Source: Spirochaetia bacterium (GTDB lineage: Bacteria > Spirochaetota > Spirochaetia > DSM-2461). From it: a stretch of 64,000 bases of DNA. The stretch covers positions 3,328,001-3,392,000 of the forward strand of contig OY764216.1 in assembly GCA_963668315.1 (NCBI GenBank). Reading direction: 5' to 3'. This document shows positions 3,817 through 64,000 of the stretch, one piece after another (position 1 is the first letter of the stretch; each line of letters begins with the position of its first letter). The notes beneath the pieces are model-generated. The model was not told the origin of the DNA. It was given only the letters and a program-made list of their open reading frames with translations, and did no database searches. A program made the translations under genes and the position numbers.

Positions 3817-4122
3817 TTAGAACGGCAAACTTAACTGTCCGTCAAAATCCGCATCAGGATCAAGAGAAAGTTCATCCCACTCCTTCTCAAGTATCTCCTC
3901 AATTACCGGTACAGAGACCTTTCCATAATAGAGAGCTCTCTCACAGGCTGCCTCCATTCTCACCGGCGAGACCTTAAACGTCAGATCCAAAAACCGACTG
4001 ACCTCTTCATATTTCTCATGGCACCACCTACCCCACAACATATAGGCTACCTGCCTGGTTTTCTCCATGAAAAGATAAGTTTCAGGAGGAGTAAAGCGAA
4101 AAAAAGTTTTCCCATTATCCAT
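3817..4122 (-). CDS. Transposon accessory protein resembling the IS21 IstA C-terminal helical region, ending in QLSLPF
   Basis: RBS AGGAGG; RMEAACERALYYG..S..VIEEILEK motif; identical in all 3 copies. Confidence 0.7.
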   Translation of the reverse strand: MDNGKTFFRFTPPETYLFMEKTRQVAYMLWGRWCHEKYEEVSRFLDLTFKVSPVRMEAACERALYYGKVSVPVIEEILEKEWDELSLDPDADFDGQLSLPF

Positions 4123-4136
4123 ACGGCTTCCTCCTG

Positions 4137-6222: not shown

Positions 6223-6250
6223 AAAACCTCCTAAAACGTTTTATTTCCAT

Positions 6251-23797: not shown

Positions 23798-24103
23798 TTA
23801 GAACGGCAAACTTAACTGTCCGTCAAAATCCGCATCAGGATCAAGAGAAAGTTCATCCCACTCCTTCTCAAGTATCTCCTCAATTACCGGTACAGAGACC
23901 TTTCCATAATAGAGAGCTCTCTCACAGGCTGCCTCCATTCTCACCGGCGAGACCTTAAACGTCAGATCCAAAAACCGACTGACCTCTTCATATTTCTCAT
24001 GGCACCACCTACCCCACAACATATAGGCTACCTGCCTGGTTTTCTCCATGAAAAGATAAGTTTCAGGAGGAGTAAAGCGAAAAAAAGTTTTCCCATTATC
24101 CAT
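23798..24103 (-). CDS. Transposon accessory protein (QLSLPF end)
   Basis: Identical to 3817..4122. Confidence 0.7.
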   Translation of the reverse strand: MDNGKTFFRFTPPETYLFMEKTRQVAYMLWGRWCHEKYEEVSRFLDLTFKVSPVRMEAACERALYYGKVSVPVIEEILEKEWDELSLDPDADFDGQLSLPF

Positions 24104-24117
24104 ACGGCTTCCTCCTG

Positions 24118-24921
24118 TTAGATGATTTCGGTCTGAGCGATGCGAACATGTTCCGCGGAAACGAGCTGACTTTTTTCTTTCGCCGCCGCCATCATAGCTC
24201 CCCTGGCGATGGTGTTAGCCCGTCTTAGAAGTCCTCCCGATGTTTGATGGATAGCAAGAATGGCTTCATCTGCGAATAGGGGCTTCTCCATCCCGGCCAG
24301 ATGAAGATGATGTTCCAGGTATCCTTTCATATGCTTCAGATTCAGACTGTCCAAATGGGAGCGCCCCACGATACGCGATGCCAGGGGTTTGGCGGAAATA
24401 GCCATGAGTTTGTCTATGAGCCCGTCCTGCCCGCAGAGAATTATGGGCATAATCGGGTTTGAATCAAAATCAAACTGACAGAGAGTATGAAGCTGGTTGA
24501 AGACCTTGGACTTAAGAAGATGGGCTTCATCTATAACGAGAATGGGGACTTTTTTCTTTGAAGCAATGTCTTTTATGATATCCCGGACATTTTTCATCGC
24601 GATAGCCAGCTGAAATGAACGGTACTCCTCCCCAAACTCCATAAGAAACTGCCGTAAAAGCTCCATCATACTGCCCGATGTAGCGACCAGCGAGATAATC
24701 TTGTACTTCCCCGGGTGGAACTTACTACACGCCAATCTCAGAGATGTGGATTTCCCGGATCCTACTTCCCCAGTGATGAGAGAGATAGCTCCCAGCTTTA
24801 CGGCGTATTCAAATCTGTCCAAAAGGGGCGGTAGTCCAGGCAGCATATAGAGATCATCCAATTTGATTTTCTGAGAATAGGGCTCCTGTGTTAATCCGTA
24901 AAAATGCTTTATATCAATCAT
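24118..24921 (-). CDS. AAA+ transposition ATPase
   Basis: Identical to 4137..4940. Confidence 0.9.
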   Translation of the reverse strand: MIDIKHFYGLTQEPYSQKIKLDDLYMLPGLPPLLDRFEYAVKLGAISLITGEVGSGKSTSLRLACSKFHPGKYKIISLVATSGSMMELLRQFLMEFGEEYRSFQLAIAMKNVRDIIKDIASKKKVPILVIDEAHLLKSKVFNQLHTLCQFDFDSNPIMPIILCGQDGLIDKLMAISAKPLASRIVGRSHLDSLNLKHMKGYLEHHLHLAGMEKPLFADEAILAIHQTSGGLLRRANTIARGAMMAAAKEKSQLVSAEHVRIAQTEII

Positions 24922-26203
24922 CGTTTTCTTCCTCCGAGAATAGTTGTCCGCCGCTATAGGGATTGGAATTCAGATCAGCTTGAATCTCTGAACGTTTGAC
25001 CTGGCTATTGATATGCACGTCCATAGGTTTAAGAAATCCTCTGGATTTATCGGCAATAAAGATTTCTACCCGGCTCATATCCGATTCATCGTAAGAGAGG
25101 TAGACCTTCTGCCCTGCCAGACCGATGGGTGCCTGGTATAGTTTTCCCTCGATACTGACCGATCTGTCATTGGTTACCGTTCTGAGCAGTCTCTTACGAA
25201 AATAATCATTCAGATTCTCCGGAGCCGATCGAAGAAGGGTTAGTGATTTCAAATAACGGTCCAGAGGTTTCTCCCGGATTGAAGAGTGTTTCCTAATATG
25301 ATAATTCTCATCAATGAAAGCAGCGAGATGCCCGTTCAATTCCTCCAATGTCAGTTCTTCCGGAAGGGCTTGAAGAACCTCCATCCTGACCGTCCTGTTA
25401 AATCTTTCGATTTTCCCTTTCCCTTGAGGGCGGTAGGGCTTCGCATACGTCAGAACAATCCCCAGAGAAGCGCAACCGTATTGAAGCTTATGGGATTTGA
25501 AATAAGCGCCGTTGTCCGTGTAGAGTTTACGGGGAAGGCCACGCTTAACCAGGGCTTTCTTCATACAGTCGATAAAATTGTCCACATTCTCCCGTAGATA
25601 GAACTGGGCATGGGGAATAAGACGGGAATGATCGTCGATGATGGCGAACATATAGGATTTTCTACGGCGGCCCTCATGAATGACATAAGGACCGTGCATA
25701 CAGTCCGATTGCCAGAGGTCATTGGGAAACTCCACTTCGAACTTCAACATATCTTCCTTCTGCTTCCTCTCCTTACCCAGTCCATGTTTTTTCAGAATTC
25801 TATAGATGGATTGGGAGGAGGCGTTGAAGTCGGGAGGAAGTACATTTCTTTGCCGGGCCAGCCTCATCAAGACGGGAACGGATGCCTTCATAAAATCCTT
25901 TCTCAGATTAATGAAGGCCAGTTCTGTTTCCCTGTCCATAATGCGGCATCCGCCCTGGTCCCCCCGGCTTTTGGGATGCAGACTCTCTATTTGCCGACCG
26001 CTGGATTCATACTTTCTGAGCCAACTGAGGATAGTCGCGCGGCTGATATAGGTACGGGTGGAAAAAGGGATATTCCACTCCCTAGCCGTCAATTTATCAA
26101 GGACATCCCTTTGCATACCCCAATCTTCTCTGCTCAGATCCAGTAAAGGATAGATCACAGAAAACCGGAAGGCGGCTACTTTTTCTCGTTCTTCTTTGGT
26201 CAT
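24914..26203 (-). CDS. DDE transposase
   Basis: Identical to 4933..6222. Confidence 0.92.
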   Translation of the reverse strand: MTKEEREKVAAFRFSVIYPLLDLSREDWGMQRDVLDKLTAREWNIPFSTRTYISRATILSWLRKYESSGRQIESLHPKSRGDQGGCRIMDRETELAFINLRKDFMKASVPVLMRLARQRNVLPPDFNASSQSIYRILKKHGLGKERKQKEDMLKFEVEFPNDLWQSDCMHGPYVIHEGRRRKSYMFAIIDDHSRLIPHAQFYLRENVDNFIDCMKKALVKRGLPRKLYTDNGAYFKSHKLQYGCASLGIVLTYAKPYRPQGKGKIERFNRTVRMEVLQALPEELTLEELNGHLAAFIDENYHIRKHSSIREKPLDRYLKSLTLLRSAPENLNDYFRKRLLRTVTNDRSVSIEGKLYQAPIGLAGQKVYLSYDESDMSRVEIFIADKSRGFLKPMDVHINSQVKRSEIQADLNSNPYSGGQLFSEEENDD

Positions 26204-26231
26204 AAAACCTCCTAAAACGTTTTATTTCCAT

Positions 26232-26720
26232 TTAAGGCGGTATTTTATTAGTTGTCACTGCAAAGCTAAGGTAGGTCATGCAGAGAGCTACCGATTTCAC
26301 ATCATGATTTATCGAATGTGAGGGGAAGCAGAACCGATTCTGAACGCTGTCTGAAAGGAAAAGGGAGAGATCAAAATTCAGTCCCTGAATAGCAGCTTGT
26401 TTCATCAGTCCCCGATACCAGTATTGCTGCCTTTGACGGCTGAAGGATGTGAACCAGGTATGGGATTCTAACTTATGAGAAAGGCTTCGATAAATTTCTG
26501 TAGCGGTTGATTGAAACCTGGGGAAATATGCAACAGGCCTGGCCGTATGTACCGCTCCGCACTCGGGACAGCGGAATCTTTTGAGGTAGAGTCCTTCCGG
26601 AAATTCGTCGAAATAACGCAGTACATAACCATGCCCCCAGATCCTGAAACTTTGGCAGGAAGGACATCTTCTTGGTTTCCTCCAGACATAATTCTTATGT
26701 TTCTCTTTAAGGACAGCCAA
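26232..26720 (-). CDS. Zinc-ribbon accessory protein (DUF6431-like)
   Basis: Identical to 6251..6739. Confidence 0.7.
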   Translation of the reverse strand: MAVLKEKHKNYVWRKPRRCPSCQSFRIWGHGYVLRYFDEFPEGLYLKRFRCPECGAVHTARPVAYFPRFQSTATEIYRSLSHKLESHTWFTSFSRQRQQYWYRGLMKQAAIQGLNFDLSLFLSDSVQNRFCFPSHSINHDVKSVALCMTYLSFAVTTNKIPP

Positions 26721-49476: not shown

Positions 49477-49590
49477 GGGGTACGGTAAATTTCCTGAGAG
49501 CTCCGACCGGAGGGCCGGTTTTGCGTGTGCTGACCCGGAGCGACTATAATACAGAAACTGACCTTAAGGAGTTTCATGTGAACGCCATAT

Positions 49591-51227: not shown

Positions 51228-51533
51228 TTAGAACGGCAAACTTAACTGTCCGTCAAAATCCGCATCAGGATCAAGAGAAAGTTCATCCCACTCCTTCTCA
51301 AGTATCTCCTCAATTACCGGTACAGAGACCTTTCCATAATAGAGAGCTCTCTCACAGGCTGCCTCCATTCTCACCGGCGAGACCTTAAACGTCAGATCCA
51401 AAAACCGACTGACCTCTTCATATTTCTCATGGCACCACCTACCCCACAACATATAGGCTACCTGCCTGGTTTTCTCCATGAAAAGATAAGTTTCAGGAGG
51501 AGTAAAGCGAAAAAAAGTTTTCCCATTATCCAT
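51228..51533 (-). CDS. Transposon accessory protein (QLSLPF end)
   Basis: Identical to 3817..4122. Confidence 0.7.
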   Translation of the reverse strand: MDNGKTFFRFTPPETYLFMEKTRQVAYMLWGRWCHEKYEEVSRFLDLTFKVSPVRMEAACERALYYGKVSVPVIEEILEKEWDELSLDPDADFDGQLSLPF

Positions 51534-51547
51534 ACGGCTTCCTCCTG

Positions 51548-52351
51548 TTAGATGATTTCGGTCTGAGCGATGCGAACATGTTCCGCGGAAACGAGCTGAC
51601 TTTTTTCTTTCGCCGCCGCCATCATAGCTCCCCTGGCGATGGTGTTAGCCCGTCTTAGAAGTCCTCCCGATGTTTGATGGATAGCAAGAATGGCTTCATC
51701 TGCGAATAGGGGCTTCTCCATCCCGGCCAGATGAAGATGATGTTCCAGGTATCCTTTCATATGCTTCAGATTCAGACTGTCCAAATGGGAGCGCCCCACG
51801 ATACGCGATGCCAGGGGTTTGGCGGAAATAGCCATGAGTTTGTCTATGAGCCCGTCCTGCCCGCAGAGAATTATGGGCATAATCGGGTTTGAATCAAAAT
51901 CAAACTGACAGAGAGTATGAAGCTGGTTGAAGACCTTGGACTTAAGAAGATGGGCTTCATCTATAACGAGAATGGGGACTTTTTTCTTTGAAGCAATGTC
52001 TTTTATGATATCCCGGACATTTTTCATCGCGATAGCCAGCTGAAATGAACGGTACTCCTCCCCAAACTCCATAAGAAACTGCCGTAAAAGCTCCATCATA
52101 CTGCCCGATGTAGCGACCAGCGAGATAATCTTGTACTTCCCCGGGTGGAACTTACTACACGCCAATCTCAGAGATGTGGATTTCCCGGATCCTACTTCCC
52201 CAGTGATGAGAGAGATAGCTCCCAGCTTTACGGCGTATTCAAATCTGTCCAAAAGGGGCGGTAGTCCAGGCAGCATATAGAGATCATCCAATTTGATTTT
52301 CTGAGAATAGGGCTCCTGTGTTAATCCGTAAAAATGCTTTATATCAATCAT
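51548..52351 (-). CDS. AAA+ transposition ATPase
   Basis: Identical to 4137..4940. Confidence 0.9.
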   Translation of the reverse strand: MIDIKHFYGLTQEPYSQKIKLDDLYMLPGLPPLLDRFEYAVKLGAISLITGEVGSGKSTSLRLACSKFHPGKYKIISLVATSGSMMELLRQFLMEFGEEYRSFQLAIAMKNVRDIIKDIASKKKVPILVIDEAHLLKSKVFNQLHTLCQFDFDSNPIMPIILCGQDGLIDKLMAISAKPLASRIVGRSHLDSLNLKHMKGYLEHHLHLAGMEKPLFADEAILAIHQTSGGLLRRANTIARGAMMAAAKEKSQLVSAEHVRIAQTEII

Positions 52352-53633
52352 CGTTTTCTTCCTCCGAGAATAGTTGTCCGCCGCTATAGGGATTGGAATT
52401 CAGATCAGCTTGAATCTCTGAACGTTTGACCTGGCTATTGATATGCACGTCCATAGGTTTAAGAAATCCTCTGGATTTATCGGCAATAAAGATTTCTACC
52501 CGGCTCATATCCGATTCATCGTAAGAGAGGTAGACCTTCTGCCCTGCCAGACCGATGGGTGCCTGGTATAGTTTTCCCTCGATACTGACCGATCTGTCAT
52601 TGGTTACCGTTCTGAGCAGTCTCTTACGAAAATAATCATTCAGATTCTCCGGAGCCGATCGAAGAAGGGTTAGTGATTTCAAATAACGGTCCAGAGGTTT
52701 CTCCCGGATTGAAGAGTGTTTCCTAATATGATAATTCTCATCAATGAAAGCAGCGAGATGCCCGTTCAATTCCTCCAATGTCAGTTCTTCCGGAAGGGCT
52801 TGAAGAACCTCCATCCTGACCGTCCTGTTAAATCTTTCGATTTTCCCTTTCCCTTGAGGGCGGTAGGGCTTCGCATACGTCAGAACAATCCCCAGAGAAG
52901 CGCAACCGTATTGAAGCTTATGGGATTTGAAATAAGCGCCGTTGTCCGTGTAGAGTTTACGGGGAAGGCCACGCTTAACCAGGGCTTTCTTCATACAGTC
53001 GATAAAATTGTCCACATTCTCCCGTAGATAGAACTGGGCATGGGGAATAAGACGGGAATGATCGTCGATGATGGCGAACATATAGGATTTTCTACGGCGG
53101 CCCTCATGAATGACATAAGGACCGTGCATACAGTCCGATTGCCAGAGGTCATTGGGAAACTCCACTTCGAACTTCAACATATCTTCCTTCTGCTTCCTCT
53201 CCTTACCCAGTCCATGTTTTTTCAGAATTCTATAGATGGATTGGGAGGAGGCGTTGAAGTCGGGAGGAAGTACATTTCTTTGCCGGGCCAGCCTCATCAA
53301 GACGGGAACGGATGCCTTCATAAAATCCTTTCTCAGATTAATGAAGGCCAGTTCTGTTTCCCTGTCCATAATGCGGCATCCGCCCTGGTCCCCCCGGCTT
53401 TTGGGATGCAGACTCTCTATTTGCCGACCGCTGGATTCATACTTTCTGAGCCAACTGAGGATAGTCGCGCGGCTGATATAGGTACGGGTGGAAAAAGGGA
53501 TATTCCACTCCCTAGCCGTCAATTTATCAAGGACATCCCTTTGCATACCCCAATCTTCTCTGCTCAGATCCAGTAAAGGATAGATCACAGAAAACCGGAA
53601 GGCGGCTACTTTTTCTCGTTCTTCTTTGGTCAT
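52344..53633 (-). CDS. DDE transposase
   Basis: Identical to 4933..6222. Confidence 0.92.
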   Translation of the reverse strand: MTKEEREKVAAFRFSVIYPLLDLSREDWGMQRDVLDKLTAREWNIPFSTRTYISRATILSWLRKYESSGRQIESLHPKSRGDQGGCRIMDRETELAFINLRKDFMKASVPVLMRLARQRNVLPPDFNASSQSIYRILKKHGLGKERKQKEDMLKFEVEFPNDLWQSDCMHGPYVIHEGRRRKSYMFAIIDDHSRLIPHAQFYLRENVDNFIDCMKKALVKRGLPRKLYTDNGAYFKSHKLQYGCASLGIVLTYAKPYRPQGKGKIERFNRTVRMEVLQALPEELTLEELNGHLAAFIDENYHIRKHSSIREKPLDRYLKSLTLLRSAPENLNDYFRKRLLRTVTNDRSVSIEGKLYQAPIGLAGQKVYLSYDESDMSRVEIFIADKSRGFLKPMDVHINSQVKRSEIQADLNSNPYSGGQLFSEEENDD

Positions 53634-53661
53634 AAAACCTCCTAAAACGTTTTATTTCCAT

Positions 53662-54150
53662 TTAAGGCGGTATTTTATTAGTTGTCACTGCAAAGCTAAG
53701 GTAGGTCATGCAGAGAGCTACCGATTTCACATCATGATTTATCGAATGTGAGGGGAAGCAGAACCGATTCTGAACGCTGTCTGAAAGGAAAAGGGAGAGA
53801 TCAAAATTCAGTCCCTGAATAGCAGCTTGTTTCATCAGTCCCCGATACCAGTATTGCTGCCTTTGACGGCTGAAGGATGTGAACCAGGTATGGGATTCTA
53901 ACTTATGAGAAAGGCTTCGATAAATTTCTGTAGCGGTTGATTGAAACCTGGGGAAATATGCAACAGGCCTGGCCGTATGTACCGCTCCGCACTCGGGACA
54001 GCGGAATCTTTTGAGGTAGAGTCCTTCCGGAAATTCGTCGAAATAACGCAGTACATAACCATGCCCCCAGATCCTGAAACTTTGGCAGGAAGGACATCTT
54101 CTTGGTTTCCTCCAGACATAATTCTTATGTTTCTCTTTAAGGACAGCCAA
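53662..54150 (-). CDS. Zinc-ribbon accessory protein (DUF6431-like)
   Basis: Identical to 6251..6739. Confidence 0.7.
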   Translation of the reverse strand: MAVLKEKHKNYVWRKPRRCPSCQSFRIWGHGYVLRYFDEFPEGLYLKRFRCPECGAVHTARPVAYFPRFQSTATEIYRSLSHKLESHTWFTSFSRQRQQYWYRGLMKQAAIQGLNFDLSLFLSDSVQNRFCFPSHSINHDVKSVALCMTYLSFAVTTNKIPP

Positions 54151-54317
54151 ATCCGTCCGAAAATAAATTATGATTTATGGGTTGGGATAGCCGTTCTTGC
54201 AGGAACAATAGGCTATCCCTTTTTTATCGATAATTTATTTTGTGAAAATGAAGTATAAAAATATTTTATTGTGGAATATTGATAGAATAATCTGATAGAT
54301 TAATGTTGGATTCTACA

Positions 54318-54880
54318 ACGGTCAGATCATCATCGAGGAGGTTTCTCCGACCCTATCCATCTTTACCGGGGATATCCGTCTTTCCCTTCTGGAGAAGAAT
54401 CTTTTAGGGGAGATTGATGCACACCTGCACATTAAAGAACTACTGGAGCAAGAGCGGTTTCAGGAATATTCCTATATCCTGATCGATACTCCGCCTTCTC
54501 TGGGAGTCCTGACTCTTAATGCTTTGACAGCTGCCCACCACCTTATCATTCCCATAGCCTGTAAACTCTATTCCCTCCAGGGAACCAATGACCTCATGAA
54601 TACCGTCAGCAAGGTTCGGAAGACTCTCAATCCTGATCTGAACCTCCTCGGGGTTCTGATAGGTCAGTATGACCGGGTACCGGTTATTTCCCGGGAGATA
54701 CGGGAGGAAGTGGAACGTTCCTTCGGTGATCTGGTATTCCCTGTGGTTATCAGCAAGAGTATCCGGGTCGAGGAGGCTATAGCCCAGAAGAAGGGTGTGG
54801 TGGAACTTCCTATCAAAGACCGGATCAAAAAGGAGATTGAAGATGCTGCTCAGGAGCTGATCCGCAGGAGCTCTCTATGA
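54318..54880 (+). pseudogene. parA: 5'-truncated ParA/Soj
   Basis: Reads GQIIIEEVSPTLSIFTGDIRLSLLEKNLLGEID..IDTPPSLG from the transposon end and aligns to 63039..63779. The first ~59 codons, including Walker A, are missing. Confidence 0.88.
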
Positions 54881-57573
54881 GTAGACGACTCAATGGATCA
54901 ACTCTTCAGGTCAGTGGCTTTCTCGATGAGTTCGAGAAGGACCAGGTCAAACGTGATGTAGACATCGTTTCACTTTTCTCGTCCTTTGGGGTGAGTTTGG
55001 AAAAGCGTGGCGACTCCTATATGGGACTGTGCCCCTTTCATGATGACACCAACCCCTCACTATCTGTAGACCAGGAGAGAGGTCTCTTCCACTGTTTTGG
55101 CTGTGGAGCTTCGGGAGATATTTTTGATGTGGTCATGAAGCTCAGGGGACTGGACTTCAAAGAGGCATTGGCCTACCTGAAGAACGGTACCGCTTTGGAA
55201 TCTCCTCCTGTTCCCCAAAATCCTCCAAGGCCTCTACCGGCACCCGAAACGGAACCGGAGGAAGAGACTCTTCCTAATGATATCAAGCTGAATACAGTCT
55301 GTGAGCATTACCATACCCAGCTTTCCAAGTTCCCCGAAGCAGTGGAATATCTGGAAAGCCGGGGACTACTTAACTGGGAACTTTTGAACCGACTGAACAT
55401 TGGCTATGCTCCGGGGAATCTTCGGGAGATAGTGGGTGACCGACAGTATAAGATGCTCAAGGATTCCGGTGTCTTCACTGATAAGAACCAGGAAGCTTTT
55501 ACCGGTTGTATCACCTTTCCGCTTTCCGATGAGTCCGGTAAAGTTGTTGGTCTCTATGGTCGAAAAATCTCTTCCAGCGGCAGAGTCAAACACCTGTACC
55601 TCAAGGGGCCCCATAGAGGACTTTTCAATGGGAAAGCGTTTACAGCTTACCCGGAGCAGATCATCCTCACAGAGAGCGTTATAGACGCCCTCTCCCTAAT
55701 GGTAATGGGGATTCCGAACGTTGTCCCGATCTACGGCACTAATGGGGTAACCAGTGACCACGCTGATGCAATCAAGGAAGTTAGGACAAAAGAGATTGTT
55801 CTGGCTCTTGATAATGATGAGGCTGGAAGAATGGCTTCTGCTGAGTTAAAGGAGAAGCTTCTTACCTCCGGTGTATCTGTCCGTGAAGTCTTTCCTCCTG
55901 AACCGCACAAAGACTGGAATGATGCACTGCACGAAGGGTTTTGTGCAGAGCAGTTTTCCTCACTTTGGCAGGGCGCTATCGTGACCCAGCCGTCCCAGGC
56001 ATCCCAATCAGAGGGAGCATCCCTCCAGGTTGAAGAACGGGAGGGAAGCTATTATTTTTCCCTGGGGAATATCGACTACCGTATATCAGGAGTTAAAGAA
56101 GGGTTCATCTCTTCCCTGAAGATAACCTTGAGAGCTAAGAAGGAGGAGCAGAAATTCATCGATAAAACAGACCTCTATTCAGCTCGGAGTCGTACCTCAT
56201 TGGCTATGGCACTATCTCGGGAACTCCAGGAGGAGTCTGGCCGAATAGAGAAGGACCTGATGATCATCCTGGAGTGGCTGGAAGCGGACCGTGACAGAAA
56301 GCTCTCTGGGATTGAGGAAACTGTGCAGAAGCACCTCACGGCTCAGGAGGAGATTCTGGGAATGGCTCTCCTGACAGCTCCTGATCTTTTCGATAGGATT
56401 GAAGAGGACCTGTCTTCCCTCGGATATGTTGGAGAGTCGGTAAACAAGATACTCATGTATCTGGCTGCTTCCTCCCGGAGGATGAAGGACCCAATCTCAG
56501 TGATCGTTATCTCCCAGTCTGCTGCCGGTAAGAGTTACCTTATCGACACTGTAAAGAAGCTGATTCCTGCTGATGAGGTTATTTCCCTGACCAGTCTTTC
56601 CGACCAGGCATTGAACTACTTACCTGAGGAAGCACTCCTGCACAAGTTCCTTGTTATGGGGGAGGCGGTGCATTCTGATATCGTTGATCATCAGCTGAGA
56701 GAGATGCTTTCCGGTCATGAACTATCTCGATTGGTAACTTCCAAGGATGAGAAGACCGGGCGGATGATGAGTAAGCTTATCCGTAAAAAAGTCATCGTCT
56801 CTGCCGTGATGAGTTCTACCAGTAACGATATCAACCCGGAGAATGCTTCCCGGTGTTTCGTTATCAATACCGATGAGACGGAGAATCAAACCAGAGCTAT
56901 CCATAAACTCCAGAGACAGAAGTACACCTTGGAGCGGTACCGTAAGAAGGAGACGGAAGTCCCGAAGATCATAGAGCAGCACCTGGCCGCCCAGAGGCTT
57001 CTACAGGATCGAATCATAGTAAACCCTTTAGCTGAGTATCTGGACTTCCCGGCCACACAGATGAGGGCCAGGCGGGACCATGAGCGCTTTATGGACCTGA
57101 TTGCTTCAGTGTGCTTTCTGAGGCAATTCCAGAAGGAGGAGAAGACCGATGGAGAGCAGACGTTTATCGAAGTGGACCTGACCGACTACTCGCTGGCATA
57201 TCGCATCATGACCGCAGTTCTTCCCGCTACATTAAGCAACTTCCCCAAGAGTGCACAGCTCCTCTTTGACTATGTTTCTCAGTTGCTAAAGGATAAAGCG
57301 GAACGGGAGAACCTCTCCCTTAATGAAGTTGCTGTCACTCAGAGGGAGATCAGGGAAGAGACCGGGTTATCCCATGACATAGTCAAACGGAACATGAGGC
57401 TCCTGTGTGAGTATGAGTATGTGCAAGTCAAACGGAAGAACTATGGTGGTTCCTGGCGTTATTATCTTCCCCATGGGGATTCTCTGAATATTCTGGACCT
57501 GTCGGCCATCCCGTCCCCTGAAGCCATGGAGCAACTAATCCGGGGTACCGGGGCAGAACCGGGGCAAGAATAA
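54877..57573 (+). CDS. CHC2 zinc-finger/Toprim primase fused to a P-loop ATPase/helicase and C-terminal wHTH
   Basis: CPFHDD..HCFGC; TESVIDALS, ALDND, KDWND; SQSAAGKS; TQREIREETGLSHDIVKRNMRLL. Confidence 0.9.
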   Translation: MSRRLNGSTLQVSGFLDEFEKDQVKRDVDIVSLFSSFGVSLEKRGDSYMGLCPFHDDTNPSLSVDQERGLFHCFGCGASGDIFDVVMKLRGLDFKEALAYLKNGTALESPPVPQNPPRPLPAPETEPEEETLPNDIKLNTVCEHYHTQLSKFPEAVEYLESRGLLNWELLNRLNIGYAPGNLREIVGDRQYKMLKDSGVFTDKNQEAFTGCITFPLSDESGKVVGLYGRKISSSGRVKHLYLKGPHRGLFNGKAFTAYPEQIILTESVIDALSLMVMGIPNVVPIYGTNGVTSDHADAIKEVRTKEIVLALDNDEAGRMASAELKEKLLTSGVSVREVFPPEPHKDWNDALHEGFCAEQFSSLWQGAIVTQPSQASQSEGASLQVEEREGSYYFSLGNIDYRISGVKEGFISSLKITLRAKKEEQKFIDKTDLYSARSRTSLAMALSRELQEESGRIEKDLMIILEWLEADRDRKLSGIEETVQKHLTAQEEILGMALLTAPDLFDRIEEDLSSLGYVGESVNKILMYLAASSRRMKDPISVIVISQSAAGKSYLIDTVKKLIPADEVISLTSLSDQALNYLPEEALLHKFLVMGEAVHSDIVDHQLREMLSGHELSRLVTSKDEKTGRMMSKLIRKKVIVSAVMSSTSNDINPENASRCFVINTDETENQTRAIHKLQRQKYTLERYRKKETEVPKIIEQHLAAQRLLQDRIIVNPLAEYLDFPATQMRARRDHERFMDLIASVCFLRQFQKEEKTDGEQTFIEVDLTDYSLAYRIMTAVLPATLSNFPKSAQLLFDYVSQLLKDKAERENLSLNEVAVTQREIREETGLSHDIVKRNMRLLCEYEYVQVKRKNYGGSWRYYLPHGDSLNILDLSAIPSPEAMEQLIRGTGAEPGQE

Positions 57574-57688
57574 TAATCTCAAACAAATCGTTTCAAATAA
57601 AGTATTTAGAGCAAACCGGGGCAACCGGGGTATCGCGAAAGCTAAGTAATATCTCCTTGCCCTGTATTTAATTACAAGAAACCGGGGC
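57539..57688 (+). repeat. Six WCCGGGGY direct repeats with AT-rich spacers (putative iteron origin)
   Basis: Copies at 57539, 57547, 57558, 57615, 57624 and 57681. Confidence 0.7.
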
Positions 57689-57718
57689 GTAAATCCCGGA
57701 AAGGGTAAGGCAAAGCAT

Positions 57719-58621
57719 ATGGAAAAGTTATTGAAAGAGTATGAGACCAATCTGAAATCCAGAGAAATTAGAAGCTGGAAAGACTTCATCGCTCAGATCA
57801 GGCTCTTCATAAAATGGTGTAGTGAAGAGAACATTGAACCTTTGGAAGTAACAGAGGATGAAGCTCAGGACTGGATCATCTCTATGGTGGAAGGGAATCC
57901 TCCTCTGAACAGAAAGACCATCAATCGGAAGCTGGGAATTGTAAAAGGGTTCTATCGGTTCCTCGAAAGACAGGGAGCTATCGCTCAAACTCCTTTCTAC
58001 TACCAGAAGCCCTTAAAGACTGGAAGAACACTTCCTAAGTCTGTTCCCAATCCTACCGATCTGGACCTTCTTATCAAGAACTTCAGTATCTTTTCCCAGA
58101 GTGATCGTATGCTCAAAACCATGATCGAGATACTCTATGGAAGCGGACTACGGATCAGTGAGGTGGTGGCTCTGAGGTTGGAGGATATCCACGGGGAATC
58201 CCAGACCCTGACCATCCATGAGAAGAAGACGGGAAAAGTAAGGGAAGCTCCTGCAACTTATGCTTCCATACAAGCTATCAGAACTTACCTCGATGATATT
58301 CGTCCTCGCATCATGAATGCTTCAGAACTATCGGAGACCTTCCTCTTCCCTCAACAGGGCGATACCACTATTCGGTGCAAGATGAACCGGAGATTGAAGC
58401 GGGAGTGTATGAGGTTAGGTTTACCGGTGCTCACAAGCCATTCCTTCCGCCATGCAGCTGCTACCCATATGCTCAAAGCCGGGGCTGGGATCAGGCTGGT
58501 CCAGAGCTTTCTGGCACATGAGAACATTGCTTCCACAGAAGTTTATACCCATCTCGTGAAGGAAGACCTGAAAGACCTTATCCATAATCTCCATCCCAGA
58601 GAACAGAGGAGAGCTTTATGA
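57719..58621 (+). CDS. Tyrosine recombinase, XerC/D-like #1
   Basis: GLRISE, HSFRH, LAHENIASTEVY; complete catalytic set. Confidence 0.93.
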   Translation: MEKLLKEYETNLKSREIRSWKDFIAQIRLFIKWCSEENIEPLEVTEDEAQDWIISMVEGNPPLNRKTINRKLGIVKGFYRFLERQGAIAQTPFYYQKPLKTGRTLPKSVPNPTDLDLLIKNFSIFSQSDRMLKTMIEILYGSGLRISEVVALRLEDIHGESQTLTIHEKKTGKVREAPATYASIQAIRTYLDDIRPRIMNASELSETFLFPQQGDTTIRCKMNRRLKRECMRLGLPVLTSHSFRHAAATHMLKAGAGIRLVQSFLAHENIASTEVYTHLVKEDLKDLIHNLHPREQRRAL

Positions 58622-59526
58622 ACTATACGGAACTACTCAGAAATAGCTTGAAGGCCAGAGGGCTCTCTGAGGCTACCATCAGAAGGAAGCTCCAGGAGTG
58701 GAAGCGGTTCTCTGAATATCTTGCCAATCATAACCGGGATATCCGTGATGTGGATGCTTCCTTTCTGGAGAGGTACATCCTCTACATGAAATCAGGTGAG
58801 TATTCGGGAAGCACTCAGAACACAGCCAGGGCCCTCCTTAAAGACCTTTTCGAATTACTCCATAGAAAGTCCCTTATTCTAACAAATCCCTTCTCGGCAG
58901 CTCAGATCGTTATCTCCGAGAAGGGGGGAGCCAAGGCTGTACTGTCCAAGGAACAGGTAGTGGACTTTCTGGAAGTCATCGAACCTATCTCCGGGTATGC
59001 GATCCGTGACAGAGTCATGTTCGAACTTCTCTATGTTACCGCCATGCGGAGTCAGGAACTGGTGAATTTGGATGTTGAGCATCTGGACCTCAAGTCCAAG
59101 GAAGTCTTTATAGCCATGGGGAAAAATCGTAAGGATAGAATCGTTCCCCTGGGGGATACGGCACTGTCCTTTCTGAACCTCTGGCTCAAGAGAGCGAGAA
59201 AATGGTTTACCCTGGAAGAGTCTGGTGCACTGTTTGTTAACGATACAGGAGGTAGGCTTTCTACCTCTACTGTTCGTATGCGGTTCAAGCATTGGTTGAA
59301 GGAGGCTGGCCTCCAGAATAAGGGGTTTACACCTCATTCTCTGAGACATAGCTGTGCCACTCATCTGCTTGAAAATGGTGCTGATATCCGGTATGTCCAG
59401 GAACTTCTGGGGCATGATTCCATTGAGACCACTGCTGATTATACCCGAGATATTGTCAAGGATATCAAGCGTATTCACCGCTCCTATCATCCTCGGGAGA
59501 ATGAGATATTTCCCGAAGACCTTTAA
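58618..59526 (+). CDS. Tyrosine recombinase, XerC/D-like #2
   Basis: AMRSQE, GKNRKDR, HSLRH, LGHDSIETTADY; ATGA overlap with #1. Confidence 0.93.
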   Translation: MNYTELLRNSLKARGLSEATIRRKLQEWKRFSEYLANHNRDIRDVDASFLERYILYMKSGEYSGSTQNTARALLKDLFELLHRKSLILTNPFSAAQIVISEKGGAKAVLSKEQVVDFLEVIEPISGYAIRDRVMFELLYVTAMRSQELVNLDVEHLDLKSKEVFIAMGKNRKDRIVPLGDTALSFLNLWLKRARKWFTLEESGALFVNDTGGRLSTSTVRMRFKHWLKEAGLQNKGFTPHSLRHSCATHLLENGADIRYVQELLGHDSIETTADYTRDIVKDIKRIHRSYHPRENEIFPEDL

Positions 59527-59603
59527 CCTTTTAGGAAATAACTGTATACTTCTACTGGTTCTTTGAAATAGGTGAGTAGTCCGTAGAGGAGGCTTACTGC
59601 GAA

Positions 59604-60476
59604 GACGGCCTATTGTGGTATGCCTATGCCAACAATAACCCAATGAAGTTTACTGATCCGACGGGGATGATGAGTGATTCTGCAGCTTTAGCTGCTGCTG
59701 AAGAAGATAGAGACATTGCTGATTCGGATAGTGAATATGGACATACCATGCCCACAAGAAGAGAAAGACGACAACAAAAGAGAGAAGCAAAACACACCTT
59801 AAAAGAGAATGAAAAGCAATATTGGAAAATTTATGAGGATATTGTCAGAATGAGGGAAAAAATCTTTAATTTCGAACCGGGACAGGGCGATATGGATGTT
59901 GCTCTTGATCAATTAAAAGAGCTTCTTTCTGAATATAGTGATCTTCAAATAGCGTCTGCTCTTGATACAATGATTCGAAGTAATGATATTTTTTATGCTC
60001 CTGAAAATTTCAGTGGAGTTCAATATATAAATTATAGTCTCACTGGGATGTTACTCATGAGTGGTTCCGCTGATTATGGTTTTGCCGCTGAATTTAATCA
60101 AGGAAAACTAGTTCAAGCATCACCTTTCGTAGCAGTTAACGGGGGATTTGTAACTAATTTTGGTGTTGACCTTACTGCAAATTTTGGAGTAATGAAGAAT
60201 GCAACTCTGAACGATTTCTTTGGCTGGGGTAATAGTATTTCAGCTAGTGCTAGCCCTGTTCTTGGTATAATTGGGTTATCTGGAGGATTTACAAATATAG
60301 GAAATGATAATTATGCTCAAGATAATATCTATGATGGAGAACTCTATGGATATGAGAAACCTACGAGAAAGTTTTTCAATTCAATTGGGTACTCCGCCAT
60401 TCCTATGGATTTTAGTGTTATGACTGGATATACCTCACAAACAGGAATTGATATATTTGGATTAGGATTGGAATAG
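59604..60476 (+). other. Orphan Rhs C-terminal toxin module (junction repeat copy 2 + 269-aa tip), no clear start
   Basis: DGLLWYAYANNNPMKFTDPTG identical to the main Rhs, then unrelated sequence; in-frame TAG a few codons upstream. Confidence 0.88.
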
Positions 60477-60728
60477 ATGATATTTAAAATTGCATTGAGT
60501 ATAATTTATCGGATAATAATTTTCACACTCATAATGATTCTCTATTCTAAGAACATTCGAAGTTATTTAAAGTCTCAAAATCTTGAATCCAATTCAGATA
60601 TGTTTAGTAGAAGACAGCTAAAAGATATGATGCTTTATTTTAGAATAAAAAAAAGCGTCTTTAACGCAGGAGGAGTTAGTCTTCTTTTATATTTCTTTTT
60701 TTGCTTTGGACCTGAAATATTTTACTAA
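60477..60728 (+). CDS. Putative membrane immunity protein (2 TM)
   Basis: Starts immediately after the orphan tip's stop; two hydrophobic segments. Confidence 0.7.
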   Translation: MIFKIALSIIYRIIIFTLIMILYSKNIRSYLKSQNLESNSDMFSRRQLKDMMLYFRIKKSVFNAGGVSLLLYFFFCFGPEIFY

Positions 60729-61083
60729 TTGTGGGACGCGTAGTTTTTTCCTAAAATTCTGTTCAAGGTTATTTCTTATTTGATTGCTGATAGCTGAATC
60801 GGTTCGGCAATTATTCCGAAGCTGCTTTCCTGTACTGCTCAGGAATCTGTACATGGTCTGGGAGCAGGTCGAAGAGGTTTCTTTCCTGAATCAGCTCCCA
60901 GGGGATATCATCCTGCTTGAACCATCGCTCCGCATGCCAAAGGTAGACAGAAGCAATGCCTCTGTCTACCGCCGGGGCTGGTCACAAACCGATCCGGTTT
61001 GCTGCTCGCCCATGCATCCTGGGCAATCACAGCGCTACGACCCGGTACGGCCTGAGTTCACCGTTGGCCAGGACGGCCAATGG

Positions 61084-61166
61084 CACATAATACGAAGCTA
61101 AACGAAAGGCGGAGGCCAGGACGGCTGGAGCCGACCCGAAGGGTTTCGATTAGCGTGGATTATGTG
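61084..61166. other. Long imperfect hairpin with dif-like arms
   Basis: CACATAAT/ATTATGTG, GCTAA/TTAGC and CGAAA/TTTCG nested complementary blocks. Confidence 0.65.
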
Positions 61167-61298
61167 TGGGACAGGCGCAGGGGCGATTGTCCCGTCAGCG
61201 GGGAGAATGGGGAAACTAACGAGACCGTTGAACCTGAACCGTCCTATGGTCCGGTCAGGTTAACGGGGTTGTTAGTTTTTTTTACCCTGATCATATAA

Positions 61299-61327
61299 TT
61301 GCATAAATGTAGTTACAATGATATAAT
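61299..61327 (+). promoter_or_regulatory. brnTA sigma70 promoter with TGTA-GT-TACA operator
   Basis: TTGCAT-17bp-TATAAT; ATG 6 nt downstream, no RBS. Confidence 0.7.
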
Positions 61328-61333
61328 TATAGT

Positions 61334-61621
61334 ATGCTCTTTGAATGGGATGAAGAAAAAGATAAAATCAACCAGCGGAAACACGGATTGTCATTCAAAG
61401 ATGCCCGGTATGTATTCGCCGATCCCTATGCGGTGACCCGTGACGACGATACGGATGATGAACACCGTCAGCAGATCATGGGGCATATCGGCGGCACCCT
61501 GCTTATTTTGGCAGTCTATACGATGCGGACGAAGCAGGGTGATGAAGTAGTTAGAATAATCTCCGCCCGAAAAGCGACGGCGGCGGAAAGGAGGAAGTAT
61601 GAAGCAGGAAAATGGTTTTAG
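61334..61621 (+). CDS. brnT: BrnT toxin
   Basis: FEWDEEK...NQRKHGLSF.DA..VF.DP...RIISARKAT..ER..YE. Confidence 0.93.
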   Translation: MLFEWDEEKDKINQRKHGLSFKDARYVFADPYAVTRDDDTDDEHRQQIMGHIGGTLLILAVYTMRTKQGDEVVRIISARKATAAERRKYEAGKWF

Positions 61622-61889
61622 TGCTATGGACGAAGAGACAAAGGCAAGGCTGGCCGCTCTTGCCGACTTACCTGACTCTGAGATAGATACGAGCGATATC
61701 AAGGAATGGACCGATGAAGATTTCTCCCAGGCGGTTCCCTTTCATAATATCTATAAGCCCAAGAAGGAGCAGATAACGACCCGGATCGATTCGGATATCC
61801 TACTATGGCTCAAGAGTCATGGGAAGGGTTACCAGACGCTTCTGAATGATCTTCTGAGAAAGGAGATGATGATGGAGTGTAAGCGATAG
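61599..61889 (+). CDS. brnA: BrnA antitoxin
   Basis: IDTSDI.E..KP.KEQITTRIDSDIL.WLKS.GKGYQT..N..LR. Confidence 0.92.
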   Translation: MKQENGFSAMDEETKARLAALADLPDSEIDTSDIKEWTDEDFSQAVPFHNIYKPKKEQITTRIDSDILLWLKSHGKGYQTLLNDLLRKEMMMECKR

Positions 61890-61903
61890 TGTAAAATACT
61901 CTG

Positions 61904-62275
61904 TTAGGAGTTTGCTCTAATAAGGTCATCCAGTGTTTTGAGGATGGCCTTTTTTTTGGCTTCCGGAAGGGCTTCAATCTCTTTCATTCGTCGCATATAG
62001 CGCAAAGGTAATTCTTTTCTATAAGAAATATCGGAAAGGCCTAAAAGTTCGTCAGATGAAACCTGAAGGGCAATTGAGAATCCTTTTATCATTTCATCGT
62101 TAAGATGCAATCTTCCTCTTTCATAGTCGGTTACGAGTTTTTGACTGATGCCTATGATCTCTGCTAATTGTATCTGAGTTAATCCTCGCAGTTTTCTGAG
62201 AGTAGAGATTCTTTTCCCTATACTTATCTCGGGAGATTCATTTGAAAGAAGTTTAGTTTTCGCTACTTGTGGCAT
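61904..62275 (-). CDS. Xre-family HTH repressor
   Basis: RISTLRKLRGLTQIQLAEIIGISQ..VTDYERG; divergent from the replication operon. Confidence 0.9.
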   Translation of the reverse strand: MPQVAKTKLLSNESPEISIGKRISTLRKLRGLTQIQLAEIIGISQKLVTDYERGRLHLNDEMIKGFSIALQVSSDELLGLSDISYRKELPLRYMRRMKEIEALPEAKKKAILKTLDDLIRANS

Positions 62276-62297
62276 CTAGTCATAGTATATAATCTTA

Positions 62298-62326
62298 TTG
62301 ACGAATATACCATAATGGTATATAAT
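62298..62326 (+). promoter_or_regulatory. Near-consensus sigma70 promoter overlapped by a perfect 19-bp palindrome (putative Xre operator)
   Basis: TTGACG-17bp-TATAAT; ATATACCAT-A-ATGGTATAT at 62305-62323. Confidence 0.8.
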
Positions 62327-62503
62327 AGAGGCTAGTAATATACTTGACACGGTTTCGTTGAAATCGTAAAAAGCCCTGATTCTACAGTTTGGCGACCGGA
62401 ATCAGGGCTGACAAAAAAACACAGAGGAGGAATCCTCCATGCTCTTTTATTTTACCCGAAATCCTTTCCCCGGTCAAAAGGTTCCTCCTCAAAAGGAGTC
62501 CCT

Positions 62504-62776
62504 ATGGACCAACTATCCACCTGTGACCTGTACGAGGCGGGTTACTACCTTCTGAACCGCTGCACCCTCGAAGGTGTGGAGACCACCGAACTTGACGGAA
62601 AGCTCAGCTGCCGGCTGATTCTGGCCGGTGAAAACACCGGGGAGCTGCAGACCCTCTACTTCCACAACAAAGCCCAGGTTAACCTCTTTGACTTCCGCCG
62701 GATGTACTCCCACTTGAACAAGGTTCTTTACGAAGCGAAGAAAGTCTACAAGAAAGAGAAGGGGGTACAGGCATGA
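62504..62776 (+). CDS. Small hypothetical protein (DUF5659-like)
   Basis: RBS AAGGAG; TCDLYEAGYYLL motif; first gene of a coupled operon. Confidence 0.7.
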   Translation: MDQLSTCDLYEAGYYLLNRCTLEGVETTELDGKLSCRLILAGENTGELQTLYFHNKAQVNLFDFRRMYSHLNKVLYEAKKVYKKEKGVQA

Positions 62777-63042
62777 ACAACCCCGAAAACGACCGCCTGG
62801 TGACCTCCAACCTGGCCGAAGTCTGTTACCTTCTGGAAAACCACCATCGTCTGACCGGCGCGGAACTGGTCATGGGGAACATGGGAGCCGAGGAGATGCT
62901 TTTCACCCTTGAGGGAGAGAATATTCTGGTTTCCCGCCGTCTCTTCATGGGGGACACACGCGTCCGCCTGTCCAAGATACCCGCCACGCTGGATACAATC
63001 AGTGACTTTCTCTGGAAGCAGGTAGAGGAGGCGGAGCTATGA
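62773..63042 (+). CDS. Small hypothetical protein, probable distant paralog of the previous gene
   Basis: TSNLAEVCYLL..L.G.E parallels TCDLYEAGYYL..LEGVE; ATGA overlaps at both ends. Confidence 0.7.
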   Translation: MNNPENDRLVTSNLAEVCYLLENHHRLTGAELVMGNMGAEEMLFTLEGENILVSRRLFMGDTRVRLSKIPATLDTISDFLWKQVEEAEL

Positions 63043-63779
63043 AAATTGTTTTCTCCAACCAAAAAGGCGGTGTAGGCAAGACCACCAGCTGCCGGGAACT
63101 GGGTATCTCCCTTTCTCTCCAGGGCAAGAAAGTCCTCCTTGTCGATACGGACCCCCAGGGCAACCTCTCCAAGAGCCTGGCGTACAATGAAACAGGACTC
63201 TACGACGCGTTGACAGACGGTATGGTTATCATAGAGCCTATTTCGGAAACTCTCTCCCTTCTTTCCGGAGACATCCGCCTATCCCTCCTGGAAAAGAATC
63301 TTTTAGGTGAGATCGATGCTTACCAGCAACTCTCAGAGTTGTTTGAACTGGACTGCTTCCAGAAGTTCGACTTCATCCTGATAGACACTCCGCCGTCTTT
63401 GGGAATCCTGACTCTGAACGCCCTGGTCGCCTCGGACGCTCTGGTGATCCCTGTGAGCTGTAGAATGTACTCCCTTCAAGGGACTAACGACCTGATGAAC
63501 ACGGTGAGCAAGGTTCGGAAGAACCTGAACCCCGACCTGAAACTCCTCGGTGTCCTTATCAATGCCTTTGACCGGGTTCCGGTAATCATGAGGGAGATAA
63601 AGGAGGAGATAGAAAAGGCCTTTGGGGAAGCGGTCTTCTCCCAGGTGATCAGCAAGAGCGTTCGGGTGGAAGAAGCTATCGCCGGTAAGAAGGGAATTCT
63701 GGAACTCTCTACCCGTGATCGTATCAAGGAGGAGATTCAATTTTTGACCATGGAGCTGATTTCTCGGAGCCGTCTATGA
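63039..63779 (+). CDS. parA: ParA/Soj ATPase
   Basis: NQKGGVGKTT, DTDPQGN, IDTPPSLG. Confidence 0.93.
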   Translation: MKIVFSNQKGGVGKTTSCRELGISLSLQGKKVLLVDTDPQGNLSKSLAYNETGLYDALTDGMVIIEPISETLSLLSGDIRLSLLEKNLLGEIDAYQQLSELFELDCFQKFDFILIDTPPSLGILTLNALVASDALVIPVSCRMYSLQGTNDLMNTVSKVRKNLNPDLKLLGVLINAFDRVPVIMREIKEEIEKAFGEAVFSQVISKSVRVEEAIAGKKGILELSTRDRIKEEIQFLTMELISRSRL

Positions 63780-64000
63780 GCGCCCGCCTAAAAGAATCGA
63801 CTCTGAACGTGGGAGGCTTCCTTGATGAGTTCGAGAAGGACCAGGTCAAACGAGACGTGGATATCCTTTCCCTGTTCTCCTCCTTCGGGGTGAAGCTGGA
63901 AAGGAAGGGTAACAGTTATATGGGACTCTGTCCTTTCCATGATGACAAGAATCCCTCCCTTTCGGTGGACAAGGCCAAGGGCCTCTTTCACTGTTTCGGC
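63776..64000 (+). CDS. Second CHC2 primase-helicase, N-terminal part; runs off the right edge
   Basis: MSARLKESTLNVGGFLDEFEKDQVKRDVDI..GLCPFHDDKNPSLSVD..FHCFG; paralog of 54877. Confidence 0.9.
   Translation, partial: MSARLKESTLNVGGFLDEFEKDQVKRDVDILSLFSSFGVKLERKGNSYMGLCPFHDDKNPSLSVDKAKGLFHCFG

Follow-up and report, generated by a model that had tools for sequence, protein, structure and literature searches.

Near the right-hand end of the window, that is, the whole stretch of 64,000 nucleotides of a Spirochaetia genome analysed here, two short arms, CACATAAT and ATTATGTG, lie 67 nt apart, and the question they raise is what kind of site or molecule they belong to. Their letters, CATAA...TTATG, resemble the inner arms of dif, and the first-pass annotation had named them XerC-like and XerD-like, joined by nested pairing blocks and inner hairpins into a folded single strand on which a pair of Xer-like recombinases might act. 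The sequence confirms the positions of the arms (61084–61091 and 61159–61166, with GGCACATAAT at 61082–61091), their distance, and the nested blocks and inner hairpins between them. The arms close a covarying fold, formed by one strand, which is located beside Rhs cassettes and plasmid-like modules and has no match in Rfam. The helix formed by the arms closes this conserved, strand-specific element, which, according to the reading tentatively preferred here, may well be a structured RNA and not a split dif.

The element and its surroundings

The genes around the arms are given below in window coordinates.

57719–59526, + strand: two overlapping Xer-like tyrosine recombinase genes, 300 and 302 aa (Pfam Phage_integrase, 7.8e-33 and 4.5e-49)
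59604–59670, + strand: 67-bp repeat at the rhs core/toxin junction, with copies in the same genome
59613–60476, + strand: orphan Rhs C-terminal toxin, 287 aa, beginning WYAYANNNPMKFTDPTGM and sharing the repeat with the rhs gene
60477–60728, + strand: 83-aa hydrophobic ORF, by its position a putative immunity protein
61334–61889, + strand: brnT/brnA type II toxin-antitoxin pair, which starts the next plasmid-like module
61904–62275, − strand: Xre HTH gene
63039–63779: ParA gene, with the primase gene from 63776

The first 67 bp of the 287-aa ORF recur, 93–96% identical, in the 3440-aa rhs-type gene of the window and before three other cassettes, so that the ORF can be taken as an orphan Rhs C-terminal toxin, the toxin part of which has no Pfam match. 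Copies of the junction repeat are found at genome positions 3375819 (the main rhs gene) and 3396485 (94–96%), at 3432926 (93%) and, in weaker form, at 3429804. Upstream of the toxin ORF are situated a truncated ParA, an 898-aa DnaG-type primase and the two recombinases; the downstream order is brnTA, Xre HTH, two small ORFs, ParA, primase, a second recombinase pair and the next rhs junction. A module with a primase of this type (≈ 900 aa, CHC2/Toprim), often accompanied by a type II toxin-antitoxin pair, lies between Rhs cassettes in at least three spirochaete genera; the arrangement HTH/small ORFs/ParA/primase/YR1/YR2 recurs between the rhs cassettes of genomes G010 and G130, with parts on contigs of G019 and G008 (module loci: window 54524–59526 and 61334–64000; L023:1–4305; L057:3600–10330; L083:10977–15620; L058:139–6438; L059:386–4591). 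Judged by its genes, the module is probably an integrative plasmid carrying toxin cargo. Homologues of the primase (30–34% identity) reside on true plasmids, and NZ_CP072857.1 (L185), an enterobacterial plasmid of 11.3 kb, carries relatives of the primase and recombinase; its annotated genes include xerC, HTH genes, a RelE/DinJ pair and small pairs for a nuclease and its immunity protein, with no replication gene besides the primase homologue. On the Ralstonia megaplasmid NC_003296.1 (L186:9159–13815), a related recombinase is encoded ≈ 1.9 kb after the end of an Rhs gene. With such distant relatives on both plasmids, the link between Rhs genes and recombinases may be widespread. A search of plasmid DNA returned a single match, to xerD, which is irrelevant here.

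The window also holds three IS21-like units (429-aa and 267-aa ORFs; 3817–6739, 23798–26720 and 51228–54150), one of which truncates the ParA of the first module, and three copies of a 397-aa transposase ORF (7875–9068, 12409–13602 and 22087–23280). The DNA between the cassettes around the element is a mosaic of repeats. In the second rhs array of the same genome, the inter-cassette regions (genome 3430990–3431400 and 3432500–3432870; L024/L025) contain ≈ 400 nt conserved with the DNA upstream of the element (window 60909–61021), and the element itself is absent.

The element is composed as follows.

61060–61172, + strand: folded element, whole, 113 nt, in the order H1, P1, P2, three-way junction (P3, P4)
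61061–61083, + strand: H1, 9-bp hairpin CCGTTGGCC-AGGAC-GGCCAATGG, abutting the 5′ arm of P1 and predicted in RNA and DNA folds
61084–61091, + strand: P1 5′ arm, CACATAAT, pairing with 61159–61166
61097–61105, + strand: P2 5′ strand, GCTAA-A-CGA, pairing with 61146–61154
61108–61132, + strand: P3, with a GGC/GCC base (3 bp), a 3×3 GGA/GGA internal loop and the hairpin GGCC-AGGAC-GGCT (61114–61126)
61133–61145, + strand: P4, GACCC-GAA-GGGTT, 18–30 nt longer in other copies, as a variable hairpin
61146–61154, + strand: P2 3′ strand, TCG-A-TTAGC, pairing with 61097–61105
61159–61166, + strand: P1 3′ arm, ATTATGTG, pairing with 61084–61091
61168–61193, + strand: hairpin H3, GGGACAGGCGCAGGGGCGATTGTCCC, predicted in the RNA fold
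61216–61283, + strand: terminator-like long imperfect hairpin (61216–61275) followed by T8 (61276–61283), read from the sequence and conserved

The top of H1, GGCC-AGGAC-GGCC, is a near repeat of the P3 hairpin. The long hairpin was not flagged by the terminator scan because its stem exceeds the limits of that scan; the T run behind it is present in the window and missing in copy 2 of this genome and in G003:C185, and in G001:C36 a copy of the long hairpin stands by itself 3′ of an ORF. H3 is complete only in both copies of the window's genome and in G003:C185, with its 5′ part alone in G003:C94.

The first-pass annotation had proposed folding both strands, and both fold far better than chance, as RNA and as DNA. 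With RNA parameters, 141 nt of the + strand reach −64.5 kcal/mol (z −5.13; none of 200 shuffles did as well) and the − strand −55.8 (z −4.93); with DNA parameters, 113 nt reach −29.0 (z −6.51) on the + strand and −24.3 (z −5.20) on the − strand. The minimum-energy RNA fold contains P3 and P4, the helices supported by covariation, while the DNA-parameter fold retains only H1, P1 and P2.

Distribution, covariation and the dif likeness

The equivalent region of the first unit had been described as missing and comparison as impossible, which holds for the window but not for the genome: a second copy lies 11.9 kb downstream, with 76% identity over window 61065–61278, and ten more occur in five other genomes. 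A covariance model, first made from five copies and then rebuilt from eleven, recovers 12 full copies in 6 of ≈ 185 spirochaete genomes searched. Within the family, which is here the whole order, 5 of 38 genomes have full copies, namely the window's genome and all three other species of genus g1 and the single genome of genus g6, against none of 33 in four other genera; in the sample of the class, 2 of 151 genomes are positive, the window's own and G130 from another family, in which 1 of 7 genomes has the element. Outside these twelve stand a variant with a plain hairpin in place of the junction (G001:C36) and a truncated copy (G003:C114). Two scans of public collections gave no new lineage: a junction-core pattern hit 21 metagenome loci, none of which matches the covariance model, and an H1 pattern hit 98 genome stretches, of which 80 were fetched and 3 were true copies, all on contigs already found, the remaining 77 matching H1 at most (≤25.6 bits). 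Rfam release 15 has no match at the gathering threshold in the 64-kb window, and at E ≤ 10 only chance-level matches in 60400–61500 and in a G003 copy. Window 49490–49535, GCTCCGACCGGAGGGCCGGTTTTGCG, resembles P3/P4 of G003:C94 with 14 identical nt; it is not scored by the covariance model and may, from this likeness, be what is left of the first unit's copy.

Covariation, another proposed check, is pronounced. Among 11 copies, 94.1% of 406 cells pair, as against 28.6–43.5% when the 3′ partners are slid by 1–3 columns, and both sides have changed in 19 of 37 pairs; none of 500 shuffles attains any of five measures. For nine copies the figures are 94.0% and 15 of 37. The alignment was fitted to the covariance model and thus favours structure, yet every helix contributes: covariation is found in all seven, including the 3-bp helices inside the junction. 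In H1 both sides have changed in 5 of 9 pairs, with 97% of cells paired and one G·U kept in 10 of 11 copies, and its sequence is nearly identical in G130 despite the different family. P1 shows change on both sides in 3 of 8 pairs (96.6% of cells paired) and P2 in 6 of 8, while the base helix of P3 swaps between GGC/GCC, GCC/GGC and GGAG/CUCC, and P4 keeps a G·U pair in 9 of 11 copies. The P4 extensions, which lie outside the model, differ wholly among the three G130 copies, each being a perfect hairpin, and in G008 the extension is capped with GAAA. Compensatory change extends to copies that have no plasmid backbone nearby, the GGAG/CUCC helix being that of G003:C94. Departures exist as well: the mismatch position of P2 is a 1×1 A·A in the window, a C–G pair in G002 and a bulged A in G001:C18, with no constant bulge, and in copy 2 of the window's genome the pairing of P2 is lost. 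An internal loop of 4–6 × 4–6 nt separates P1 from P2 in 11 of 11 copies. A lack of positional or structural conservation, which the first-pass annotation had named, along with absent recombinase binding, as refuting the folded site, is not what was found; the fold is conserved in position and structure and is strand-specific.

The letters conserved best across three genera are the junction core AAGG, GCC-A(N)GGA(N)-GGC, CGACCC and GGGUU, and the sequence of P1 drifts. The apical loop of P3 contains GGA in 11 of 11 copies and that of H1 in 6 of 11. CsrA-binding RNAs of the CsrB/RsmZ type expose several GGA motifs in loops. The total GGA count is not above that of shuffles (fractions 0.05–0.97), and since all five genomes checked have CsrA genes, the presence of CsrA does not discriminate. 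As to the strand, nine copies hold 26 G·U cells versus 6 A·C cells, and therefore the + strand is the folding strand; G·T is the mildest mismatch in folded DNA, so that this asymmetry alone cannot separate RNA from single-stranded DNA.

The same comparison bears on the dif likeness. A split dif would have the arms as XerC and XerD halves joined by folding, like CTX-phi attP(+), for which the letters of the arms and the recombinase genes 1.5 kb upstream speak. Across the copies, P1 reads as follows.

Genus g1: 5′ arm CACAUAAU, 3′ arm AUUAUGUG
Copy 2 of the window's genome: 5′ arm UAUAUAAU, 3′ arm AUUAUGUG, unchanged
G008: 5′ arm CACUUAAU, 3′ arm AUUAAGUG, pair CACTTAAT/ATTAAGTG
G130: 5′ arm CGCUCAAU or CGCCCAAU, 3′ arm AUUGGGCG, pair CGCTCAAT/ATTGGGCG

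Thus P1 changes with compensation in G008 and G130, and the dif-like arms do not survive as a conserved feature: the likeness is confined to P1 and is lost in these two genomes, the pairing alone being kept, with the inner triplets AAU/AUU nearly invariant (9–11 of 11 copies). On folding, the arms pair into one 8-bp helix and present no succession of XerC arm, spacer and XerD arm; since they are paired to one another, two adjacent half-sites for recombinases cannot be presented. Nor does helix P2 next to them (TTTCGATTAGC) look like a dif arm. Two 11-bp arms around a 6-bp spacer, the layout of the double-stranded 28-bp dif, are not seen either, the arms measuring 8 bp and lying 67 nt apart here and 85–99 nt apart in G001, G008 and G130 (67–100 nt overall). 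Taken together with the distribution of the recombinases discussed below, a split dif is very unlikely.

Two other readings of the arm sequences were tried and dropped. H1 and the 5′ arm of P1 can be written as a sigma-70 promoter, TTGGCC-16-CATAAT (61064–61091); the reading was rejected because its −10 hexamer is not kept in G008 and G130 and because a transcript starting downstream of the −10 could not form the covarying P1. At this promoter-like position of H1/P1, copy 2 of the window's genome has a perfect TATAAT. The motif of the 3′ arm was also followed as a repeat at the left ends of cassettes, with GGGTATG upstream of four and GTATATG upstream of two; it was not retained as a cassette end, because in the cassettes of this genome it lies inside a longer homologous region, and the 8-mer GGGACAGG is common (660 per genome).

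Cassette boundaries and the possible roles of the element

Rhs-derived coding sequence is found within 1.5 kb of 7 of the 12 copies. Of the other five, two are cut off at contig ends, two (G008:C419 and C270) have no recognised neighbour, and the fifth, copy 2 of the window's genome, is separated from the last cassette by 2.6 kb with an IS3 element in between, and ends the island against a type II secretion operon. The order Rhs cassette, element, type II toxin-antitoxin pair with an RNase toxin, and Xre HTH is found in three lineages, the toxin being BrnT in the window, YafQ in G008:C310 and YoeB in G130. The element shares the strand of the nearest rhs-derived ORF in 3 copies and is opposite to it in 4. 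An ORF on the same strand is located directly upstream in 7 of 12 (both copies of the window's genome, G003:C185, G003:C94, G001:C18, G008:C310 and G130a) and is a recognised immunity or TA-toxin gene in 5 of those 7. Two of the G130 copies lack any upstream gene on their own strand. In front of H1, no promoter conserved among the copies compared was seen.

For the structured RNA preferred here, one may envisage that the element is transcribed as the tail of an operon running into it. In the window and G003 this would be the toxin/immunity cassette, in G008 and G130 a toxin-antitoxin operon with YafQ or YoeB. Folded into a defined shape, the junction would then bind a protein through its conserved loops, the candidates being the invariant N-GGA-N loop of P3 and its look-alike on H1, with the result that the message would be stabilised or regulated; the window's transcript would end at about 61283, at the long hairpin and U8. 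An RNA is favoured because conservation is centred on the junction, because the short junction helices covary, and because the RNA fold recovers P3 and P4 but the DNA fold does not; the two fixed G·U pairs, the GAAA cap, the structured state of lone copies and the upstream same-strand ORF of 7 of 12 copies argue in the same direction, and the long hairpin with T8 behind the element lends further support. Against an RNA count the missing conserved promoter, the mixed orientation and the two G130 copies without an upstream gene, as well as the GGA count, which is not enriched, and the mildness of G·T mismatches in DNA. Moreover, each copy is found at the boundary of a mobile unit, and a step in sequencing depth starts at the edge of the 3′ arm of P1, which a DNA site explains more directly.

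This step was seen in three runs of one sample, which are not independent. In all three, contigs break at the node 61159–61188 and at genome 3396340–3396369, and the 7.2-kb stretch between the breaks has ≈ 1.7 times the flanking depth, its left edge being the first base of the 3′ arm of P1. The depths of run X1 are:

54300–61188: 195
7.2 kb between the breaks, from window 61159 to genome 3396369 (L044:1159–8369): 354–388
After the second break: 218–232

The contigs of X1 and X3 share the break node 61159–61188, with depth 195 to its left versus 354–388 to its right, and among the contigs of the three runs nothing ≥85% alike was found on 61104–61158. A simple circle of the 7.2-kb stretch is excluded, as it would not branch at the observed nodes, and so is a recombinant of copy 2 and copy 1, as an unbroken contig of 29.8 kb runs through copy 2. 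An identical edge in depth would result from homologous exchange that stopped at the block conserved best.

A structure-specific recombination or boundary site, active as folded single-stranded DNA in the manner of attC, is possible by analogy and ranks not far behind the RNA. P1 would serve as R box, the internal loop as spacer, P2 as L box and the branched top as variable terminal structure; exchange at G|ATT, catalysed by the element's Xer-like pair or by another tyrosine recombinase in trans, would transfer cassettes among plasmid-like elements, rhs arrays and secondary sites on the chromosome. Every copy of the element marks the edge of a unit, and in three lineages this edge separates a cassette from a TA-HTH-primase-recombinase module; the raised depth of the 7.2-kb stretch sets in precisely at 61159. 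Two lone cassettes of G003, each ≈ 2 kb long and made up of core-end repeat, toxin, immunity and element, end with the element, and the genes on either side of them are direct neighbours in the window's genome. The similarity between copies stops 0–30 nt past the 3′ arm of P1 in G002, G003:C94, G001:C18 and G008. The AAU/AUU triplets of P1 are placed like the AAC/GTT of attC, the top of which can be branched according to PMC2727003, and the folding strand is the lagging-strand template here (GC-skew origin ≈ 0.76 Mb, terminus ≈ 3.58 Mb); mixed orientation and the lack of a conserved promoter would likewise be in keeping with a DNA site. On the other hand, the top is the most conserved part here and the least conserved in attC, a 3-bp junction helix is weak in DNA, and the DNA fold lacks P3 and P4. 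The element accompanies only part of the cassettes: at least 5 cassette junctions in the window's genome stand against 2 copies, neither of which is in its second rhs array, and the array of G130 has the element at 2 of ≈ 5 boundaries. The depth step loses weight where the circle and the recombinant are excluded and homologous exchange would leave the same edge. In G002:C433 (L013), tandem heptamer repeats (TCATTCG and CGTAACC runs) follow directly 3′ of the 3′ arm.

The recombinases, too, count against such a site. Their scores on the NCBIfam XerC/XerD models (172–213 bits) stay below the cut-offs of 330–335, and on integron-integrase models they reach 49–116 bits, against cut-offs of 265 and 435 (89–116 against 265 in two split stretches). 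Recombinase pair and element do not co-occur: G001, G002 and G003 (80–96% complete) have the element and no close homologue of YR2, the best matches showing 32–39% identity, and G010 and G019 have YR2 at 50–51% identity and no element even with filters off. Nor did the covariance model find a diverged copy beside the related recombinase modules of G010, G019, G008:C108 and the Lonsdalea plasmid. The last recombinase gene of the module always ends 85–115 nt before an rhs core/toxin junction (1.4 kb in G010), which points to this junction as the more likely site of the pair. In G010 (L057:10330–10470), three GTGCAAGTA repeats directly follow the second recombinase gene; by their position these could be binding sites. 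The earlier idea of a true recombination or resolution site is thus supported in part, by the reality of the fold, the mobile-unit boundary and the depth step at the 3′ arm, and finds no support in the likeness to dif or in the assignment to the Xer pair.

Two further explanations concern the modules and the mosaic around the element. It might serve the replication of the plasmid-like element, as an initiation site on a folded single strand that the DnaG-type primase reads, given that it adjoins modules encoding this ≈ 900-aa enzyme, homologues of which are found on true plasmids, including the 11.3-kb one whose annotation has no other replication gene. Such a role is unlikely, as the structure persists in lone copies that have no primase close by, and the model finds no match in the related modules of G010, of G019 and of the Lonsdalea plasmid. 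Alternatively, it might have no function of its own, being a palindrome-rich remnant or small selfish repeat whose edges are hot spots of homologous exchange. The lost P2 pairing of copy 2, the plain hairpin of G001:C36, the truncation of G003:C114 and the repeat mosaic between the cassettes fit this picture, which is nevertheless improbable in view of the double changes in 19 of 37 pairs across three genera, the invariant loop and junction residues, and the three G130 copies, which keep the hairpin despite complete turnover of its sequence.

Relation to known systems

The closest layout is that of attC, described by Bouvier et al. (2009, PMC2727003) as a strand-specific imperfect hairpin of 57–142 nt, formed by the folded bottom strand at the end of a gene cassette, with exchange at the inner end of the outer arm on the 3′ side and a top that can be branched. 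The element shares the outer helix with inner triplets, the unpaired spacer, the second helix and the branchable top, and its depth step falls at the position of the attC exchange point. It differs in that its triplets are AAU/AUU where the R″ and R′ boxes at the two ends of attC have conserved AAC/GTT, a motif not found at the ends of the element, and in that its top is the most conserved part, with only the P4 extension variable, whereas attC is poorly conserved in sequence and its top is the most variable. In place of the two or three extrahelical bases on the 5′ arm of attC, the P2 of the element shows the changing mismatch, pair or bulge described above. Furthermore, integrons have an integrase (IntI) with attI next to the array and one site per cassette; here there is not one element per cassette and no integron integrase, and the strand that folds is, for the cassettes of the window and G003, the sense strand. 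By analogy, an integron-like system might move the Rhs cassettes, the element being the equivalent of attC, cut at G|ATT on one strand, while cassettes hop between plasmids with ParA, primase and Xer pair, rhs arrays and secondary chromosomal sites; this extension is rather doubtful, and if true it would amount to a second, independently evolved system of structure-specific cassette recombination, dedicated to polymorphic toxins. More generally, a folded-DNA site would make this only the second known cassette system that uses structure and not sequence.

For CTX-phi, the forked hairpin of attP(+), by which the element exploits XerCD, was reportedly described by Val et al. in 2005; the folded stem comprises a full XerC arm, the central region and a XerD arm matching the dif of the host. 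Both cases have inverted half-sites tens of nucleotides apart that fold on one strand of a mobile element with Xer recombinases. In the present case, however, the dif-like letters make up one 8-bp helix and covary away elsewhere, and the recombinases are the element's own; a stem of the CTX-phi type is not seen, P1 alone being dif-like and P2 not, and the sequence of P1 is not conserved.

Displacement arrays of Rhs C-terminal regions are said to have been reported by Jackson in 2009 and Koskiniemi in 2014, and the acquisition, displacement and reuse of orphan Rhs toxin tips are usually ascribed to plain homologous recombination. The locus resembles such arrays in that orphan toxin/immunity cassettes sharing a core-end repeat come after a complete rhs gene, and integrase-like genes that adjoin rhs loci were proposed as capture agents by Steele et al. 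(2017, PMC5727410), without a test in the part of that article at hand. It differs in its structured element, which does not figure in the available text of PMC5727410, and in its integrases, a tandem Xer-like pair on a ParA/primase/TA module between the cassettes. The rAID arrays of Bacteroidales (PMC12247911, in the accessible portion) likewise combine a tyrosine recombinase, a co-oriented array of toxin-related cassettes and conserved intergenic motifs; they consist of immunity genes only, belong to another phylum, and have no primase/ParA module and no motifs described there as folded. Among the papers listed by a literature search, none on a folded element at the ends of Rhs cassettes came up.

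What the locus offers is a well-supported, uncatalogued structured element tied to cassette boundaries, together with a plasmid-like vehicle between cassettes in at least three spirochaete genera and a sharp edge in copy number inside the element. With the structured RNA preferred here, the nearest relatives in kind are orphan structured RNA motifs of the Rfam type, with which the element shares a covariation-supported fold of several stems, a narrow taxonomic range and the lack of an assigned function, and from which it departs in matching no family of Rfam 15 and in its orientation to neighbouring genes, which is not fixed; if it is an RNA, it would be a new motif linked to the expression of toxin/immunity or toxin-antitoxin genes.
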